The translations under genes and the position numbers were made by a program. A DNA stretch of 64,000 nt, from assembly GCF_000967915.1 (NCBI RefSeq), contig NC_022549.1, positions 531,522 to 595,521 on the forward strand, read 5' to 3'. Source of the DNA: Acholeplasma brassicae. Lineage in GTDB: Bacteria > Bacillota_I > Bacilli_A > Acholeplasmatales > UBA5453. The notes under the pieces are model-generated. The model was not told where the DNA came from, made no database searches, and saw nothing but the letters and a program-made list of their open reading frames with translations. Of this stretch, positions 4,422 to 64,000 are shown in pieces; position 1 is the first letter of the stretch, and each line of letters opens with the position of its first letter.

Positions 4422-5780
4422 ATGGAAAATAGATTAAACACAGGTTCACAAATTGAATTAGAAATCAAAAAATTAGGAATTAATGGGGAAGGCATCGGCT
4501 ATTATGAAAAAAAAGCCGTTTTTGTTGATTACGCCCTACCAGGCGAATTAGCCTACGTTGAAATCACGGATGATTTTAAAACATATTATAAAGCCAAACT
4601 GATTAAAACCATCAAAGAAAGCAAAAGTCGTATCACGCCATTTTGTCCAATCTACTTTGAATGTGGGGGATGTCAAACCCAACACATGGCGTATGAAGAT
4701 ACGTTACTACATAAAAGAGACTTAATTCTACAAGCGATTAAACGCTACGTCAAAGTACCGTTTAATACCAAAAAAGTAGATAAAGCGATTGGGATGGATA
4801 ACCCAAGTCACTACCGTAATAAAGCAAGCTTACCAGTTCAATATAAAGATGGTAAGAACGTCATCGGTATGTATCAAGCAGGCACAAATCACTTAGTTGA
4901 TTTTAAGGACTGCCCAGTACAAGACAATGACATCAACAAGTTTTTCAACTTGATTTTAAATCAAATGGAAAAACGAAAAATGAATGCCTTTAATCGTGGA
5001 GGCAACATCCGTTTTATCGTCATTCGTAAAACCAAACTAACCAATGAAATCCAAATCTCATTCATCGTTAATGAATCCTCAGAAGACGTCATTGAACTTG
5101 GTAAATACATGAAAGAAAAATTTGTTGAAGTTAGCTCGGTTTATGAAGTCATTAACAAAGATGTTAAATCTAGAGAATTCTTCACTAATGATAAAACATT
5201 AATTGCTGGTAATGAAACTGTCACTGAAGAAATGAACGGTATTACATTTAAGCTAAAACCAGACGCATTCTTCCAATTAAACACCACACAAGCAGACAAA
5301 CTTTATCAACTGATTGTTGAAAAAGGCGAATTTACTAAAAACGACATCGTTGTGGATGCTTATAGTGGGATCGCACCGATTGCCTTGTACGTTGCACCGC
5401 ATGTGAAAAAAGTGTACGCCATTGAAGCATTAAAAGCATCACACGAAAGTGCGATTGAGACCATTAAAGAAAATAATCAAGAAAACATTATACCAATGCT
5501 AGGTGATGTTAAAGAAGTACTTAATAAGAACAGAAACATCAAACCTGATGTGATTGTTTTTGATCCACCAAGAACTGGCTTAGGCCGTGCAGTGACGGAC
5601 TTCTTATTAAAACATAAACCGAAGAAGATTGTTTATGCTTCATGTAACCCATCGACATTAGCTAAAGACCTAGATGAGTTATTAAAAGCTTATGAAGTTA
5701 AATCAATCACACCACTCGATATGTTTCCTTATACAAGTCACGTTGAGAGTGTGACATTACTTACATTAAAAACGGCATAA
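4422..5780 (+). CDS. rlmD: 23S rRNA (uracil-C5)-methyltransferase RlmD/RumA family
   Basis: N-terminal TRAM domain. Fe-S cysteine cluster CPIYFECGGCQ. SAM-methyltransferase motifs VFDPPRTGL and ASCNPSTL. Confidence 0.85.
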   Translation: MENRLNTGSQIELEIKKLGINGEGIGYYEKKAVFVDYALPGELAYVEITDDFKTYYKAKLIKTIKESKSRITPFCPIYFECGGCQTQHMAYEDTLLHKRDLILQAIKRYVKVPFNTKKVDKAIGMDNPSHYRNKASLPVQYKDGKNVIGMYQAGTNHLVDFKDCPVQDNDINKFFNLILNQMEKRKMNAFNRGGNIRFIVIRKTKLTNEIQISFIVNESSEDVIELGKYMKEKFVEVSSVYEVINKDVKSREFFTNDKTLIAGNETVTEEMNGITFKLKPDAFFQLNTTQADKLYQLIVEKGEFTKNDIVVDAYSGIAPIALYVAPHVKKVYAIEALKASHESAIETIKENNQENIIPMLGDVKEVLNKNRNIKPDVIVFDPPRTGLGRAVTDFLLKHKPKKIVYASCNPSTLAKDLDELLKAYEVKSITPLDMFPYTSHVESVTLLTLKTA

Positions 5781-52653: not shown

Positions 52654-52739
52654 GTGGGCGTGGCGGAATGGTAGACGCGCATGTTTGAGGGGCATGTGGC
52701 TTAAAGGCTGTGTGAGTTCAAGTCTCATCGTCCACACCA
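52654..52739 (+). tRNA. tRNA-Leu (anticodon GAG), class II tRNA with a long variable arm
   Basis: Acceptor stem gtgggcg/cgtccac with one G·U, 3-bp D stem, anticodon stem catgt/gcatg with loop ttGAGgg, long variable arm, T arm gtgag-ttcaagt-ctcat, and a 3' ACCA. Confidence 0.8.
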
Positions 52740-52909: not shown

Positions 52910-54589
52910 ATGGAAAATAAAAATTTAGTATGGGAATTTGCAAACAAAGTCAGAGGACGTGTGCCTGAAGAAATGGCAGTTGAATTTGTTATTTCATTTG
53001 CATATGATTATTGCAACAGAAATGATTTAATACCAGGAAGTGATACAGAATTACTTAACATCGCTGGAGAATCATTGGAACGAATACCAAGTGATCTAAA
53101 ATTTGATTTAGAAAATCTGTTTGTGGACTTAAGTTTCAATGAAATAAAAGGAATCGTTTCTAGTTCTCTATTTATAAAACAGAGATTTATGGATAATTCG
53201 AATGATAATCTGTTGGCTTTAGCTTCGGAGTTACTTGAACTATCGAATGGTGATTCACTTTTTGATTTAGGTAGTGGATTAGGTAGTTTTTTAATTGGTA
53301 CATTGAAATTAGCTCAGGAACGTTCAATTGAGTTGTCTGCTTTATATGGTGTGGAGATTAACTATAATCAACATGCACTTTCTAAGATGATACTAGAAAT
53401 ATTCACCTTTGATTCTTCGGTAAAAAGCAAGATTAACTATGCTAATATCCTAACCGATAAATACGAACTAACTTATAATAAAGGGTTTGTCTATCCACCT
53501 TTAGGTATGAAGTTGATGGGTAATGATCTAAACTATATTTCTATTTTCAAAAACATTGTTCTATCGACTCGAAACTCTGTTGAATGGATATTTATAGATA
53601 AATTATTGAATAATTTAAAAGGTGACGATGCTAGAGCGGTAGCACTTGTTACTGGTCGTACGTTATTTAGTGCAGTTGATAGAGATTATAGGGACGAAAT
53701 ACTAAAGAGTGGCATGCTTGAAGGTATCATTGAGTTACCACAAGGAATTGTCGATAATACATCGATCAAGTTATTCTTACTTATCTTTAGTAAAAATAAT
53801 AAGAATGTTCGTCTATTTGATGCGAGTATGTTCTCATCAAAAAGAAAGTTTAATGAAACTATTAAAGTAGATGTGAAACAAATTATAGATTTCTATTATG
53901 GAAAAGATGTAGCTAAAAAAGATGTTTCAGATTTAACTGATTTATCTAACTGGATTCCTTCGACAGCACTATTAACAATAGATTCACCAAAAAATGGTGT
54001 TAAATTGAGTGAAGTTGCACATGTTTTTACAGGCTCTCAATATACAGTCAGAAACTTTCAAGAAGTATTGACTGATAAAAAAACCGGTTATAAACTTCTC
54101 ACATCGAGTGATATACAAGATGGACTCATTGATGAATCAAATCTGCAAAACATCGATAATAAAGATGGTAAGTTAGATAAATTTGCATTGGAATATGATG
54201 ATGTCATTATGACAAGCAAATCATCGAAGGTTAAAATAGCAGTCATCGATTTTGAACCAAAGGATAAAATTATTGTAACTGGTGGTATGATTATTGTTCG
54301 TGTTGAGAAGAGTAAATTAAATCCAACATTTCTTAAGGTTTTCTTAGAATCAGATCAAGGACAATTATTATTAAAGAGTATTCAAAAAGGTATATCGATA
54401 ATTACAATTAACGCTACAGAACTTTCGAATATAATTATCCCACTACCTCAACTTGATGTTCAATATAATATATCTAAAAAATATAATAGAAAACTATCTT
54501 CTTTAATGGCACTTAAGGCAGAAATTCTAAAGATAGAAGACGAACTCAAAAACTTCTATTATGAAGAAATTGAGGAGGTACTATCTTAG
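52910..54589 (+). CDS. Type I HsdM-like N6-adenine methyltransferase fused to a single HsdS-type target-recognition domain; non-canonical motif IV
   Basis: HsdM_N-like start (VWEFANKVRG). Motif I DLGSGLGSFL. FVYPPLG where NPPF/Y is expected. LLIFSKNNKNVRLFDAS parallels the IVSKNKNKERLGKIQLIDAS segment of the adjacent hsdM. C-terminal TRD plus conserved HsdS-type coiled-coil. Confidence 0.6.
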   Translation: MENKNLVWEFANKVRGRVPEEMAVEFVISFAYDYCNRNDLIPGSDTELLNIAGESLERIPSDLKFDLENLFVDLSFNEIKGIVSSSLFIKQRFMDNSNDNLLALASELLELSNGDSLFDLGSGLGSFLIGTLKLAQERSIELSALYGVEINYNQHALSKMILEIFTFDSSVKSKINYANILTDKYELTYNKGFVYPPLGMKLMGNDLNYISIFKNIVLSTRNSVEWIFIDKLLNNLKGDDARAVALVTGRTLFSAVDRDYRDEILKSGMLEGIIELPQGIVDNTSIKLFLLIFSKNNKNVRLFDASMFSSKRKFNETIKVDVKQIIDFYYGKDVAKKDVSDLTDLSNWIPSTALLTIDSPKNGVKLSEVAHVFTGSQYTVRNFQEVLTDKKTGYKLLTSSDIQDGLIDESNLQNIDNKDGKLDKFALEYDDVIMTSKSSKVKIAVIDFEPKDKIIVTGGMIIVRVEKSKLNPTFLKVFLESDQGQLLLKSIQKGISIITINATELSNIIIPLPQLDVQYNISKKYNRKLSSLMALKAEILKIEDELKNFYYEEIEEVLS

Positions 54590-55110
54590 TGTATAATGCA
54601 AAGCAGTTATCCGAGATAAAACAAAAAATTATTAGAAAAATCACGAGTGAAGTTGACCGTGCTAATGAAGATGGATTAATTGAAGAGATTTTAGAACGAT
54701 ATGGCATTGTATTTGAGGAAACAAGCATTTCTGTAAACACAAGACTAATGAAAATCCTAGTATTCGGATCATTAGCTGGAAAGAAAAAAGACTTCCAAGG
54801 GGTATTAAATAGACTAGGTATTAACCTAAACAATGTCGAGTTTATTAATGACTATTCAGAACTCAAGAGATACCCTGTTGATACACTTAGGTTTTCAACA
54901 AAGTATTCAGACTTACTAATAGGACCTGTTCCGCATAGTCAAACAGGCATGGGTGATAATTCTAGTCTTATAGCGACAATAAAAAGTAATCCAGCAGAGT
55001 ATCCACGTGTACAACTTTTAGAAGCAAATAACAAATTAAAAATTACTAAAACAAACTTCGAAAAAGCCATAACATCAACACGTTATTTTGATGCATTAAA
55101 TGAATATTAG
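54589..55110 (+). CDS. Hypothetical 173-aa protein, translationally coupled to the M·S-fusion gene (taGTG overlap)
   Basis: GTG start overlaps the upstream TAG by 1 nt. No recognisable motif. Confidence 0.45.
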   Translation: MYNAKQLSEIKQKIIRKITSEVDRANEDGLIEEILERYGIVFEETSISVNTRLMKILVFGSLAGKKKDFQGVLNRLGINLNNVEFINDYSELKRYPVDTLRFSTKYSDLLIGPVPHSQTGMGDNSSLIATIKSNPAEYPRVQLLEANNKLKITKTNFEKAITSTRYFDALNEY

Positions 55111-58301: not shown

Positions 58302-58724
58302 ATGAGAGATGCTAAATCAATTATTGGAGGAATTATATTATTGATACTTATTGCTACTGGAGTATTCTCGGTCCTACTAGATTTGACTAGTGAATTCATT
58401 AAACTGACTCTATGGATATTTCAATTAAGTTTAACTGATTTTGGATTATCTCCATCAATTGAAATCATTGTTAAATCACTGACTTTCATTCTATCTTATG
58501 CTTTGGTCGGTATTATATTTAGTGCAATTAGACTATTTAATTCAGATGTAATGAAATATGCTTATTTTGTAGTTTCAACGATGATTGGATTTGCATTGAG
58601 TGCACTCATTATGTTTTTACAAGAACATATCATCATAATTTCTTGGAGTATTTTAGGGATAACTATCATTACGATTTTCACAATAGTATTTTTAGTAAAG
58701 AAAAGAAACACTTTAAAGGGGTGA
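58302..58724 (+). CDS. Small 4-TM membrane protein inserted between hsdS and hsdR
   Basis: ATG immediately follows the hsdS stop (taaATG). Its stop is 4 nt before the hsdR start. 140 aa with four hydrophobic helices. Confidence 0.5.
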   Translation: MRDAKSIIGGIILLILIATGVFSVLLDLTSEFIKLTLWIFQLSLTDFGLSPSIEIIVKSLTFILSYALVGIIFSAIRLFNSDVMKYAYFVVSTMIGFALSALIMFLQEHIIIISWSILGITIITIFTIVFLVKKRNTLKG

Positions 58725-58728
58725 ATCT

Positions 58729-61722
58729 ATGAAAGATAATGAAAAAAGGTTTGAAGAGGATATAGAGTCTCATTTGATCAATCATGAGTATAGAAAACTG
58801 TCTATGCAAGGCTATGATGTATCAAAAGGTATTTATCTAGATATCCTTGTAGAGTTTATCAAAAAGACTCAAAGTAAATCATGGGAACGATATGAAAAAT
58901 ATTATGGTGATGAAGCACCTAATAAACTATATCGTAGACTAGAAGATTCTATTAGTCATCACGGGCTTCTTCATGTATTAAGAAATGGCATAAAAGATAT
59001 GGGGATAGACCTTTTTATCTGTTTCTTTAAACCTGAATCAGAGTTGAATCCAACTTTAGTTGAACGTTATGAAGGTAACATATTAGGTGTAACAAGACAA
59101 TTTGCATATTCACCTTTCAATAACAATACGATTGATATGGTCCTATCCATTAATGGTATTCCTTTTATTGCAATCGAGCTGAAAAACCAACTAAAGGGAC
59201 AAGATTATCGAAATGCCATGCATCAATGGCGTTACAATCGTGATCCAAAAGAACTGATATTCAGATTCAATCATAGAATATTGGTTTATTTTGCTGTAGA
59301 CCTATATGAAACATGGATGACGACAGAACTTAAAGGTACTGATACACATTTCTTACCTTTCAATCAAGGATCTAATGGTTCTGGTGTCAGTGGTGGCGCT
59401 GGTAATCCGCAAAACCCTTATGGTTATACCACATCATATCTTTGGGAAGATATATTGTCAAAAGCCTCTATTATAGATATACTTCATCGTTTTATTTCTA
59501 ACCCTAAGGATTCTAAAAAAATTATATTTCCTAGATATCATCAGTATGATGTCGTTAAGAAAGTATTAGCGGATGTTAAAGATAATGGTGTTGGTCAAAA
59601 GTATTTAATTGAGCATAGTGCAGGTTCTGGTAAATCAAATTCTATCGCTTGGATTGCATATAGATTGGCATCTGTCCATGATATAGATGATAAACCAATA
59701 TTTGATTCAGTTATCATTGTTACTGACCGTGTAGTACTTGATTCACAACTACAAGATACGATTAACGGCTTTGAACATAGAGCCGGATTAGTTGAAGCAA
59801 TTGATGATAAAAAGCGTTCAAGAGGCCTTACGGAAGCAATTAACGATAAGAAACGTATTATTATTTGTACCATTCAAAAATTCTTGTTTGCCTATAAAGA
59901 TTTCGATGAAATGGAAGGTAGAAAGTTTGCGATTATCGTGGATGAAGCGCATCAAGGTCAAACTGGTGCAAGTGCTAAGACCTTAAGAAGAGCACTGATT
60001 GATAAGAAAGTTGCAATTAAAGAGTATGCAGAGATGGAAGGTATTGAAGAAGATGAAGTTGACGATACGGATGAACTTGTTGCAGAAGTATTAGCCCAAG
60101 GACAACACAGTAATCAATCTTTCTTTGCATTCACTGCAACGCCTAAAAATAAGACAATTGAACTTTTTGGCAGAAGAAATCCATCCACTGGCAAATATGA
60201 ACCATTTCATGTCTACTCGATGAGACAAGCCATTGAAGAAGGATTTATTTTAGATGTACTCAAATACTATACAACCCTTCAAGATCAATTTAAGATAGTT
60301 AGAACCACAAGGGATAATCCTGAGGTCATAGAAGGACAAGCTAAGAGAGTCTTAGTTCGCTATTATAAAGAACATGGGTTTACCATTCACAAGAAAACCG
60401 AACTTATAATGGATAACTTCTTAAATAATGGTCAATTTAGAATTGATGGTAAGGCAAAGGCTATGGTAATTGCAGATTCTAGACCAAATGCAGTCAGATA
60501 CTATCAGGCTATTCAAGAATACATAAGAAACAATCCAGAGATAACTTCAAAGATTGGTGTTTTAGTTGCGTTTTCTGGAGAGGTTAAGCTAGATGGTAAA
60601 TCATATAGAGAAGCTGAGATGAATATCGATAGTGACGGCCATTTAATTAACTCAGATAAGAAACTTAGAAAAGCATTTAGAAGTGATAAATTCAATATTT
60701 TAGTGGTTGCAAATAAATATCAAACAGGATTTGATGAACCGTTACTACATTCCATGTATGTTGATAAAAAACTTCATGGTGTGAATGCTGTTCAAACGCT
60801 TTCTAGATTGAATCGCGTATATCCAGGTAAAGTAGACACTTTTGTCATGGATTTTGTAAACACGCATGAAGACATGAAAAAGTCATTCCAACCATTCTTT
60901 GAAACAACCTATTTAGATGGCCAAACAGATTATAATCGTGTCTATGATTTAAGAACTAAGATACACAGTTATATGCTATATAACGATCAAGATGTGGATC
61001 TTTTTGCCAAAATCAAAATAGATGCAGCAAAGAAACAAGACGATAAAGCACTTGGTCGTGTAACAAGTATACTAAAACCTGTCACAGATCAGTATCTTGA
61101 GTTGGATGAGAAGCAAAAATATGAATATAGGGATCTATTAAGAAAATTCAATCATGCCTATTCATATATCACCCAAATCGTAAGAATTAATGATAAAGAA
61201 CTATTTAAAGAGTTTATGTTCATTTCTTATCTAATCAATCTATTACCTAAAGATACTGCAGAAAAAATTAGTATTGATGACAAGATTAATCTAGAGTTTG
61301 CCAAACTTAAAGAGACATATAAAGGAAGCATAGAACTAGAAAAAACATCAGTTGATTTAAAACCTGAGCAATCAGTAGATGCAAAAAGAAAACCTAAATC
61401 TAAAGACACTCTTCAAAGTATCATTGATAAGGTTAATGAGCAATATATGGGACAATTCACTGATAGTGATAAAGTCATTATTTCTGGTATTTTTGAGATG
61501 TTTATGAATGATCCAGAAGTTAAAAAATATGCTCAATATGCCAAAGAAAATAATCCAGAAATGTTCATTAAGAGTTTATTCCCTGATAAATTCAAGGATA
61601 TAGCCTTAAGATTATTTACAGAAAATCACGAGTCATTTGAAAAATTATTTACAGACACATCCTTTTACGAAAGAGTAATGGATGCAATGGCTAAAGAATT
61701 GTACAAGAAATTAAGAAAGTAG
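58729..61722 (+). CDS. hsdR: Type I restriction enzyme endonuclease/helicase subunit
   Basis: N-terminal restriction domain and SF2 helicase motifs (EHSAGSGKS Walker A, DEAH-like IIVDEAHQG). 997 aa. Contains an in-frame 11-aa tandem duplication at about 59795–59860. Confidence 0.9.
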   Translation: MKDNEKRFEEDIESHLINHEYRKLSMQGYDVSKGIYLDILVEFIKKTQSKSWERYEKYYGDEAPNKLYRRLEDSISHHGLLHVLRNGIKDMGIDLFICFFKPESELNPTLVERYEGNILGVTRQFAYSPFNNNTIDMVLSINGIPFIAIELKNQLKGQDYRNAMHQWRYNRDPKELIFRFNHRILVYFAVDLYETWMTTELKGTDTHFLPFNQGSNGSGVSGGAGNPQNPYGYTTSYLWEDILSKASIIDILHRFISNPKDSKKIIFPRYHQYDVVKKVLADVKDNGVGQKYLIEHSAGSGKSNSIAWIAYRLASVHDIDDKPIFDSVIIVTDRVVLDSQLQDTINGFEHRAGLVEAIDDKKRSRGLTEAINDKKRIIICTIQKFLFAYKDFDEMEGRKFAIIVDEAHQGQTGASAKTLRRALIDKKVAIKEYAEMEGIEEDEVDDTDELVAEVLAQGQHSNQSFFAFTATPKNKTIELFGRRNPSTGKYEPFHVYSMRQAIEEGFILDVLKYYTTLQDQFKIVRTTRDNPEVIEGQAKRVLVRYYKEHGFTIHKKTELIMDNFLNNGQFRIDGKAKAMVIADSRPNAVRYYQAIQEYIRNNPEITSKIGVLVAFSGEVKLDGKSYREAEMNIDSDGHLINSDKKLRKAFRSDKFNILVVANKYQTGFDEPLLHSMYVDKKLHGVNAVQTLSRLNRVYPGKVDTFVMDFVNTHEDMKKSFQPFFETTYLDGQTDYNRVYDLRTKIHSYMLYNDQDVDLFAKIKIDAAKKQDDKALGRVTSILKPVTDQYLELDEKQKYEYRDLLRKFNHAYSYITQIVRINDKELFKEFMFISYLINLLPKDTAEKISIDDKINLEFAKLKETYKGSIELEKTSVDLKPEQSVDAKRKPKSKDTLQSIIDKVNEQYMGQFTDSDKVIISGIFEMFMNDPEVKKYAQYAKENNPEMFIKSLFPDKFKDIALRLFTENHESFEKLFTDTSFYERVMDAMAKELYKKLRK

Positions 61723-62075
61723 TAGTAACGGCGATTAATTCTGTAAAGAATCAATAGCTTTTTATATAAGTTTATAAATTTATATTGTAGTTATGAGAAA
61801 GGCTACTTGTTGTTATTATCGAGCATTAGGCACGAAGAGTATAAATCTTTCTTATACTAAAATAAGCTCTTCAAAATAGATTATAGTAACCACAGTTTAT
61901 TTTAATTGACTATAAAGTATCAAGAAGCAGTTGATATCATTAATGAAGAATAAGACGAAATGTGAATATCAAATATTACTAATTTAAATTTTAGTATAAT
62001 CTAATTAGATGATATAATTAAGATAAATTCAATGGTTTCTGTATTTTATTAATTATTAAAGAATGGAAGATAGTC

Positions 62076-63578
62076 ATGGCAAGTATACCAATAGCTCATC
62101 ATACAATTGAGAAAAAGCATATGGATGTTTATGAATATGAAAAGTATTTAAGAAAGTATCCTCACCGAAGAAGCATTAATGCGATTAAATGTATCGAATG
62201 TGGGGATTTTTTGATATATTGCAAAGGCGATTATAATGTTCCATATTTTAAACATTCGCCATCGGAAAAGAAGCACATTTCTTGTTCTTTATATACAGAA
62301 GGAAAAGAATCGAAAACATTTGAAGGATTGTTTCGAAAGAGATTGTTAAAAGAAGAAGACATTTCTTTTAACTACGAACTTCTTTATAAGAATGGTAGTT
62401 GGAAAAGCGTAATTACAATACCACCACTCGATCAGAAAGAAATCAAAGATAATGAAAGAAATCAAACTTTAATCACTATAATTGATGGAAATAATACTAT
62501 TAAAACCCCAATTGATAACGGGCATTTGAACCCTGGAGATATTAAAAAAATACCCCTTACAAGGCTATCAAGTACGGTTGGAATAAGGATTGATGGAAAT
62601 GGTTCTGGAAACAATATTTTATATGATATGGAAGGCTTTCGTCCGAATGAGCAGTTATATTCAAATCTTATAATTCAAAAGTATGTACCTCTATCAAACG
62701 AGAAAGAGATAGATCTGAAAAATATAGGTTCATTAGTGTGTAAAAGAATCAGTGGGAAAGTTTACACCGGAAGACACTATATAATCTTTTCAAGCAACCC
62801 AAATTTTCATTTGAAAAATAACAGGAACGGCAATATTGAGATTAAAAGACTAAATGTGAAAAGAGATAACAAGTTCAACTATTATCCATTTGATATAGTG
62901 TTTAATAATGCGAACAATGAATCAAGAGATTTTTGTTACAATCGAAAATGTATTCTGACAGAGAAAAACGATGCAGTTATACTATGGCCACCACTAAAAT
63001 CCGTTGGCAATTATCGTTTCTATCCCAAAAACAAGAAAAAAATGTTCGTTTCGTTCGAAAATGAAAATAAAACGTTAGAATTACAAGAATATAATCTACA
63101 AAAATACACAAAAATTAATCCATTCTTTATGATTAAAGATTTTTACTCGAGCTATAATTATTATTATGTTAGTCTTGATAAATCAAAAAGAGATGCTAAA
63201 AATACTTTTACAACTGAAACCGATTATCTAGATAATCTAGAATTGGATACATTCGACAAAATATTTCATTTAAAGAGAGAGTTGTTCATAGGAATATTCA
63301 ATCGAAATGATAAATTATACATGAAAAGCACACTGCTGCTCTTTAACAATCAATTAGATAGAGTGATGGGTATCAAAAATAGGACAAATGAAGATGATAA
63401 CAAACTTTTAGATGCAATAAGATACTCAAAACAATTTGTAAGATTCGATACAAGGTTTTATGAAAAACTAAAAGATAAATATTCAAAAAATAATATTATT
63501 CTAGAGTATCTCGAACATTGTAAAAGAGTTGGGACTATTAAGATAAAGGCATTTGAGATGCTTTTAGAAGAGGGGTAA
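62076..63578 (+). CDS. Hypothetical 500-aa protein with an N-terminal Cys/His zinc-finger-like motif, in an AT-rich segment distal to hsdR
   Basis: CIECGDFLIYCKGDYNVPYFKHSPSEKKHISC. Preceded by a 350-bp AT-rich gap. No recognisable catalytic motifs. Confidence 0.45.
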   Translation: MASIPIAHHTIEKKHMDVYEYEKYLRKYPHRRSINAIKCIECGDFLIYCKGDYNVPYFKHSPSEKKHISCSLYTEGKESKTFEGLFRKRLLKEEDISFNYELLYKNGSWKSVITIPPLDQKEIKDNERNQTLITIIDGNNTIKTPIDNGHLNPGDIKKIPLTRLSSTVGIRIDGNGSGNNILYDMEGFRPNEQLYSNLIIQKYVPLSNEKEIDLKNIGSLVCKRISGKVYTGRHYIIFSSNPNFHLKNNRNGNIEIKRLNVKRDNKFNYYPFDIVFNNANNESRDFCYNRKCILTEKNDAVILWPPLKSVGNYRFYPKNKKKMFVSFENENKTLELQEYNLQKYTKINPFFMIKDFYSSYNYYYVSLDKSKRDAKNTFTTETDYLDNLELDTFDKIFHLKRELFIGIFNRNDKLYMKSTLLLFNNQLDRVMGIKNRTNEDDNKLLDAIRYSKQFVRFDTRFYEKLKDKYSKNNIILEYLEHCKRVGTIKIKAFEMLLEEG

Positions 63579-63581
63579 CAC

Positions 63582-64000
63582 ATGAATATATTAGACCTAA
63601 GTGATGACGACTTAAAACTTTTTTTAGAAGAAGGTATACCAGAAAACATTCATAGAGACTTATACGTCCACAACAACAAGTTTGCTCAAAAGATAAAGGG
63701 ATTTAGACCATCTAAGGCACCTATTGCAAAGCTATCTAGTACATCATTCAACTTGATAAGAAAAGAAAAAAATAATTTTATAATTAAGTATTACACGAAT
63801 TTTTATAGCAGTTACAAGGATGATTTAGAACTAGACATAAAAAAGATGATTGATGAAGGATATCCGGATTCAGTTGCTAGTTCGATTGCTGTGAAAAGAG
63901 CATTTAGTGATAAATTTCTACCAATTTATTTTAAGTTGGAAAATATAAGTTTAGATACACAGAGTAAAATAATTCATGATTATAAAGTTTTAGTATTAAT
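63582..64000 (+). CDS. Hypothetical protein, 3' end outside the window
   Basis: Open frame from the ATG at 63582 to the window end (MNILDLSDDDLKLFLEEG…). Begins 4 nt after the upstream stop. Confidence 0.4.
   Translation, partial: MNILDLSDDDLKLFLEEGIPENIHRDLYVHNNKFAQKIKGFRPSKAPIAKLSSTSFNLIRKEKNNFIIKYYTNFYSSYKDDLELDIKKMIDEGYPDSVASSIAVKRAFSDKFLPIYFKLENISLDTQSKIIHDYKVLVL

Follow-up and report, generated by a model that had tools for sequence, protein, structure and literature searches.

Druantia type I has DruA (DUF4338) as a defining gene, and the system is said to have been laid out by Doron et al. in 2018 as DruA-DruB-DruC-DruD-DruE. To our knowledge, no function has been assigned to DruA, DruB, DruC or DruD, and type III is the only Druantia type with mechanistic and structural data (2026 preprints). 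When a library of 33 defence systems was set against a panel of 263 E. coli phages, type I Druantia was reported to act most broadly. In types I and II, the homologues of CnuB, a coiled-coil McrB-like protein, are inactivated, and both types are classed as 'Type IV CoCoNuT' with inactivated CnuB (Bell et al. 2025; PMC12458937). The nuclease predicted in the type III DruE is an active PLD domain, and the one predicted in the type I DruE is an inactive Vsr domain (PMC12458937). The locus compared here lies at the end of a 64,000-nucleotide (nt) stretch of the Acholeplasma brassicae genome (contig NC_022549.1, positions 531,522 to 595,521; hereafter the window), where two open reading frames (ORFs), called gene A and gene B, follow the hsdR gene of a Type I restriction-modification (R-M) system. 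To judge from their sequences and from those of their relatives, these two ORFs very probably stand at the head of a four-gene operon that resembles Druantia type I but lacks DruA (druB-like, druC-like, druD, druE).

Genes A and B and their homologues

The visible reading frames of both genes are intact, and the features that matter for their identification are as follows.

62076-63578, + strand: gene A (ORF A), 500 amino acids (aa), a divergent member of the DruB family
62190-62285, + strand: putative zinc-ribbon motif of gene A, C39-x2-C42...H60...C70, CoiA_N-like, with ligands invariant in the gene A family and in distant DruB
63565-63584, + strand: junction of genes A and B, comprising GAGGGG, the TAA stop, a 3-nt spacer and the gene B ATG
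63582-64000, + strand: gene B (ORF B), starting at the ATG at 63582, open for 139 codons and running off the window end

A first-pass annotation of the window had described an AT-rich gap, a 500-aa ORF with an N-terminal cysteine/histidine cluster and a coupled second ORF, and all of these are present. Gene A has a GGAAG Shine-Dalgarno-like element 7 nt before its ATG, and the GAGGGG Shine-Dalgarno-like element of gene B, as read from the sequence, sits inside the 3' end of gene A, an arrangement by which the two genes are predicted to be translationally coupled; their packing is equally tight in related loci. The cluster in gene A comprises C39-x2-C42...C49...H60...H67...C70. Neither gene has a significant match in Pfam, PADLOC, NCBIfam or PHROGs, which bears out the earlier remark that no catalytic motif is recognizable, and the sole trace is a sub-threshold match of gene A residues 10-75 to the DUF7830 zinc finger (E 0.028). 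No homology to housekeeping or phage structural proteins, either of which would have spoken against a defence role, was found.

A search of 5.8 billion proteins yielded 28 homologues of gene A with 32-54% identity, none of them named. Alignment of 27 homologues over their full length gave 40 invariant columns, including C39, C42, H60, H67, C70 and W304-P-P, and this full-length conservation at 30-54% identity indicates that gene A is a real gene and not a chance ORF. A hidden Markov model (HMM) built from the A1 alignment matched 68 proteins among 1.84 billion cluster representatives; the gene A family is rare. Among the distant HMM matches are two proteins, P0054 (E 1.6e-29, full length) and P0074, that are matched end to end by the PADLOC DruB1 model PDLC00003 (2.4e-19 and 5.6e-38, respectively), and other distant matches of the gene A profile touch the DruB1 models PDLC00004 and PDLC00005. 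Comparison of the gene A family with an alignment of twelve distant DruB proteins by hhalign gave a probability of 99.94% (E 2.3e-36, 462 columns). Through these profile links (PDLC00003 by way of P0054 and P0074, and hhalign), and without a direct PADLOC match, gene A is identified from its sequence as a divergent DruB homologue.

The residues held in common by the gene A family and distant DruB are the CxxC...FxH...C cluster, two tyrosines and WPP: C39, C42, H60 and C70 are also invariant in the distant DruB relatives, and a wide DruB alignment has as its invariants the zinc ligands, one adjacent phenylalanine, the two tyrosines and WPP, and nothing else. Two distant DruB members, P0089 and P0082, match Pfam CoiA_N (PF25164) above the cut-off (41.4 and 33.9 bits), so the zinc-finger-like cluster of gene A is assigned as a zinc ribbon of the CoiA_N type, a feature shared across the DruB family. 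The ribbon is followed by beta-sandwich domains and a C-terminal helical domain, which is possibly a winged helix; structure searches with gene A returned immunoglobulin (Ig)/C2 sandwiches only and no nuclease fold, and no conserved catalytic motif was found in gene A.

The 139-residue fragment of gene B gave nothing in a word-indexed search. Its identity to the beginning of the 517-aa gene that follows the closest gene A homologue (locus L031) is 58% across the full 139 residues, which argues that gene B is a real gene, and its full product is predicted to have about 517 aa, of which the N-terminal 139 codons are in the window. A profile made from full-length gene B proteins aligned from the related loci finds only 11 relatives. 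The connection to Druantia is through the operon of P0074 (locus L012), which encodes DruB1, a 597-aa coiled-coil protein in the DruC position, DruD1 (1e-88) and DruE1 (1797 bits): hhalign of the gene B family against the 597-aa protein gave a probability of 97.75% (E 1.3e-12) over 456 columns spanning both. Pairwise BLAST of the gene B family against the same protein found nothing, and the PADLOC DruC models detect neither of the two. On the profile comparison, gene B is a homologue of the protein at the DruC position in a PADLOC-recognizable DruB/DruD/DruE operon.

The structure of gene B was represented by an AlphaFold2 model of its homologue P0096 (predicted local distance difference test score, pLDDT, 85.4), which has a helical N-terminal domain, corresponding to what the window shows of gene B, a coiled-coil hairpin (residues 124-263) and an alpha/beta domain (residues 269-517) that in the model appears to have an AAA+ fold. 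Behind the first strand, the gene B family alignment has PIICSSxN in place of a GK[ST] Walker A motif, and it has no DE Walker B motif, the acidic pair being replaced by KN (VILIKN). Since both Walker motifs are missing, the predicted AAA+ domain is very probably not an ATPase.

Gene order in related loci

The order gene A, gene B, DruD1, DruE1 was found in all 13 non-redundant related loci that have enough downstream DNA (L001, L002, L004, L006, L007/L028, L008, L019, L020, L022, L023/L029, L026, L027 and L031; L002 is identical in sequence to L003 and L005), with DruD1 and DruE1 scored by PADLOC in L001 and L031 and by tblastn match in the remaining loci. Gene A typically has about 500 aa in these relatives, gene B about 517 aa, the third gene about 340-360 aa and the helicase about 1,710 aa. 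In L001, the third gene matches PADLOC DruD1 (PDLC00008) over its full length at 2.3e-21 and the fourth gene matches PADLOC DruE1 at E = 0 (1659 bits, covering 2-1675). In L031, the nearest relative (53% identity in gene A and 58% in the start of gene B), the full-length DruD1 match is at 1.4e-23 and the DruE1 match, on a truncated gene, is at 4.2e-86. The Pfam domains of DruE in the relatives are DEAD, Helicase_C and MZB (DUF1998), placing it in the YprA/MrfA family, so that both DruD and a DruE1-type YprA-family helicase are present in the operon of the relatives. Identity across the family is 62-70% for DruE, 43-54% for DruD, 36-48% for gene A and 30-42% for gene B. Because genes A and B are succeeded by DruD1 and DruE1 in every relative and gene A is a DruB homologue, the window end would have cut through a Druantia type I-like operon, leaving these two ORFs as its 5' half, and druD and druE (about 6.2 kb) are expected, from the invariant synteny, immediately past position 64000. 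The first-pass idea of a self-contained two-gene cassette is therefore abandoned, the A-B pair of the relatives being always directly followed by DruD1 and DruE1.

The related loci have a guanine-plus-cytosine (GC) content of 23-35%, and every named one belongs to low-GC Bacillota or Acholeplasmatales (five metagenome-assembled genomes and one Lachnospiraceae isolate record); none of the related loci was found on a viral contig or plasmid. The genome of the window itself did not turn up in searches of GTDB representative genomes (best identity 47%), metagenome contigs (48%), the protein collection (53%), viral contigs or plasmids.

DruA was sought in several ways. In the window, the genes between tRNA-Leu and gene A encode no DUF4338 protein; the precomputed Pfam annotation of L001, L002, L012 and L014 lists none either; and two DruA proteins encoded at plasmid loci L010 and L011, used as tblastn queries, had no match in any locus. 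The flanks differ from locus to locus and no fifth gene is conserved. With neither DruA nor any other conserved flanking gene, the clade is best described as a four-gene DruB-DruC-DruD-DruE unit.

Proposed mechanism and rival explanations

A mechanism can be proposed by analogy with studies of Druantia III from 2026 and with Bell et al. 2025. In type III, DruE forms a dimer and is a 3'-to-5' helicase; it engages exposed single-stranded DNA (ssDNA) (10.64898/2026.05.13.724758; 10.64898/2026.05.12.722862) and is triggered by ssDNA (10.64898/2026.05.13.724758). By analogy, DruE of the DruA-less clade would be the motor, a 3'-to-5' helicase loading on exposed single-stranded or forked phage DNA, and the accessory proteins would supply sensing, licensing and possibly effector recruitment, functions that must come from them if the C-terminal Vsr-like nuclease of the type I DruE is inactive as predicted. 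Gene A, on account of its zinc ribbon and sandwich domains and its lack of a catalytic motif, may be a nucleic-acid or phage-factor sensor or adaptor, and gene B may link the accessory proteins to DruE as a non-catalytic scaffold of the CnuB/McrB kind. Sequence change is much faster in genes A and B than in DruE, as would fit a phage-facing role, and the variable nuclease and modification genes found after druE would fit the proposed mechanism as well. It is possible, if doubtful, that the DruA-less clade is a functionally distinct Druantia subtype in which the fast-evolving A/B pair senses for a nuclease-dead DruE and cutting or self-marking is outsourced to variable neighbours; candidates for the outsourced activity may be an HNH nuclease, a CoiA-type nuclease, a methyltransferase and the recurrently adjacent Type I R-M system.

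Several points count against a Druantia type I-like operon or against the mechanism proposed for it. The druD and druE genes would lie outside the window, and their presence in this genome is read from synteny. No PADLOC Druantia model recognizes gene A or gene B directly, and the one DruC-position protein to which gene B is tied, that of L012, is itself missed by the DruC models. DruA is absent from the upstream region in the window and from about 10 kb around the relatives. Comparisons by hhalign of the gene B family with E. coli McrB and of DruD with McrC were both negative. The mechanistic analogy is taken from type III, whose accessory proteins differ. Even in the canonical system we know of no established role for DruB, DruC or DruD, nor do we know of any experiment on a member of this clade; a literature search on the three proteins gave only noise.

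One rival explanation takes its cue from the position of gene A, 353 bp after hsdR on the same strand: genes A and B could serve the adjacent Type I R-M system as accessory subunits, modulating HsdR for instance. Homologous hsdR genes recur beside gene A (a remnant 14 nt before it in L029 and a gene 6 kb upstream in L001), and a preprint ties type I Druantia to N6-methyladenine (m6A) with no methylase in the operon (10.1101/2024.04.14.589459). Most related loci, however, have no Type I R-M gene beside the operon, the invariant partners of genes A and B are DruD and DruE and not Hsd genes, and the AT-rich gap of 353 bp suggests a separate transcription unit, all of which makes an R-M role improbable. 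A stand-alone A-B module, either autonomous or left as a remnant after loss of the helicase genes, would account for what is visible, the window containing only gene A and the first 139 codons of gene B, and decay of the operon does occur among relatives, the DruC position of L014 being split into six small ORFs. None of the 13 non-redundant loci, the closest relative included, has A-B without DruD and DruE, however, and in the window both visible frames are intact and translationally coupled, and neither protein has a predicted effector activity; this explanation is accordingly given little chance.

The zinc ribbon raises the further alternative that gene A is a CoiA-like nuclease, a DNA-cutting effector that would act on D-loops or recombination intermediates as CoiA does in natural transformation. 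CoiA is a PD-(D/E)XK enzyme needed for D-loop resolution (10.1101/2024.02.06.579203), DruB-family members carry CoiA_N above the Pfam cut-off, and a true CoiA_N plus CoiA_nuc protein is encoded after druE in L023 and L029. The nuclease half of CoiA was not matched in gene A or in any DruB tested, however; the wide DruB alignment has no D...(D/E)xK pattern, and the folds recovered by the structure searches were the sandwiches already described. An active CoiA-type nuclease was rejected as an identity for gene A because there are no conserved catalytic residues and no nuclease fold, and a cutting role of this kind is very improbable. The reading of genes A and B as the front half of a DruA-less Druantia type I-like operon is the one carried forward here.

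Genomic surroundings and comparison with known systems

Two features precede gene A.

58729-61722: hsdR, 997 aa, with HSDR_N, ResIII, SWI2_SNF2 and T1R_D3 domains
61723-62075, + strand: intergenic AT-rich region between hsdR and gene A, 353 bp, 23.2% GC, the presumed promoter and regulatory region of the operon

Some 60-80 bp upstream of gene A, two TATAAT boxes coincide in part with a palindrome (TATAATCTAATTAGATGATA, at 61995-62014) that could be an operator or promoter element. A simple consensus scan of the gap for a + strand sigma-70 site found none, no terminator was found in it, and Rfam gave no match of note for an RNA element there. The gene for tRNA-Leu(GAG) is at 52654-52739. The GC content falls from 35.5% in the upstream core genome to 30.7% after tRNA-Leu, and the lower-GC stretch that begins there also carries a methylase-specificity fusion and the complete Type I R-M system. 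The first-pass label of a tRNA-linked island is plausible on these sequence features. No second copy of the tRNA-Leu 3' end (TTCAAGTCTCATCGTCCACACCA) occurs anywhere in the window, so that no island boundary is indicated before 64 kb, and the possibility that the island ends before 61.7 kb found no support. No integrase domain was matched among the seven long ORFs of the window scanned with Pfam.

Directly after tRNA-Leu (52910-55110) there is a 559-aa N6 DNA methylase fused to a single Type I specificity (HsdS-like) domain, followed by an overlapping 173-aa ORF with no family match; the fusion, a solitary methylase-specificity gene, comes in addition to the complete hsdM/hsdS/hsdR set. Between hsdS and hsdR lies an ORF (58302-58724) for a multi-pass membrane protein of 140 aa. 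Its homologue occupies the same place in L001 (260-676), and in L027 another homologue (5356-5766) is directly upstream of the druB-like gene, beside a tRNA-U5-methyltransferase-like gene; no Type I R-M homologue was detected in the L027 locus. Type I hsdR homologues with 55-57% identity to the hsdR of the window lie beside the Druantia variant in L029 (8350-9987) and L001 (678-3755), the former being a 545-aa C-terminal remnant that ends 14 nt before gene A and the latter being 6 kb upstream. This recurrent adjacency may reflect a functional link, or shared island ancestry and co-inheritance.

The relatives sit in dense defence islands, with surroundings that include CBASS, Cas9, reverse transcriptases, nSTAND3, AbiE, DUF2971 and Type I R-M genes. 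L001 (3893-9863) has an nSTAND3 NTPase, a DUF2806 protein and a reverse transcriptase; L002 (1-9785 and 19514-21509) has Cas9, CBASS (SMODS with SAVED) and a reverse transcriptase. The upstream side carries AbiEii with DUF6088 in L019 and L020, and genes for DUF2971 proteins in L006, L008 and L028. The next gene after druE is not the same everywhere: it encodes an HNH nuclease in L001 (19265-20020), a CoiA_N plus CoiA_nuc protein that overlaps the druE stop in L023 and L029 (19191-20426), a Type II-like or PD-Lambda-5_B-like methyltransferase in L012 (9912-10754), and a cyclophilin-like protein in L006 (19217-19738), L007 and L028. In a distant DruB/DruE locus, L014 (7564-10528), the DruC position is broken up into six ORFs, each of 61-139 aa, and the DruD-like gene has a length of only 261 aa; Mutator-type transposases lie on the flanks of this operon, which is probably in decay.

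An anti-phage defence function of genes A and B is very likely. The first-pass suggestion of an uncharacterized anti-phage system is thereby retained as to defence and given up as to novelty, since gene A is a DruB homologue; the locus is very probably a divergent variant of a known defence system and not a new two-gene system. A cassette that could not formerly be annotated is now explained as the probable front half of a Druantia-type operon, in a clade where DruB, DruC, DruD and DruE are conserved as a unit without DruA. The comparison also adds predicted domain assignments, namely a CoiA_N zinc ribbon and beta-sandwiches for DruB, and a coiled coil with a Walker-less AAA+ fold for the DruC-position protein. 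Current detectors see at most DruD and DruE of the DruA-less clade; because the first two genes escape the HMM sets, systems of this kind in gut Bacillota would be under-called by automated tools.

Compared to Druantia type I, the relatives' helicase scores best against DruE1 (1659 bits, versus at most 603 for DruE2, DruE3 and DruE4), DruD1 is matched over its full length, gene A is a DruB homologue, and the B-C-D-E order, the tight packing and the defence-island setting are alike. The clade differs from type I in having no DruA, in having a helicase of about 1,710 aa, and in the divergence of genes A and B beyond the reach of the PADLOC Druantia models. The metagenomic operon of L012/L013 has the same architecture of DruB1, coiled-coil protein, DruD1 and DruE1, is tied by hhalign to both gene A and gene B, and likewise has no DruA in its upstream DNA, of which only about 490 bp is available; it differs in sequence (about 26% identity in DruB, 22% in DruD and 40% in DruE), in the 597-aa length of its DruC-position protein, and in L012 by the DNA methyltransferase after druE. 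The plasmid matches to DruE1 and DruA are atypical DruA-DruE or archaeal variants, and DruD had no plasmid match. In L011 (Paracoccus versutus pTAV4), druE is directly preceded by a gene for a 686-aa DruA and this in turn by an MzaB-like gene, and in L010 (a Halalkaliarchaeum plasmid) DruA is in divergent orientation and is accompanied by a protein of 413 aa and a weakly DruD-like one of 608 aa. The presence of DruE1 helicases in these other architectures indicates that a 'type I' defined by DruE1 is heterogeneous.

Druantia type III (DruH-DruE) is like this clade in that its DruE is a YprA-family helicase containing an MZB domain, and differs by its one unrelated accessory protein, DruH. Two Protein Data Bank chains, 9tu7 and 9wae (entitled DEAD/DEAH box helicase and Helicase, about 2,000 aa), match the DruE of the family at 4.5e-66 and 2e-57 and may be type III DruE structures. 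The likeness to CoiA is confined to the N-terminal CxxC...H...C zinc finger (Pfam CoiA_N) of the DruB family: membership in the CoiA family takes both CoiA_N and the CoiA_nuc PD-(D/E)XK domain, and gene A, which has only the finger, differs from CoiA in having no nuclease domain. With CoCoNuT and McrBC systems, gene B would share a predicted long coiled coil and Walker-less AAA+ fold, as described for the inactivated CnuB, and the zinc ribbon and Ig-like sandwiches predicted in gene A are domain types listed for CnuC.

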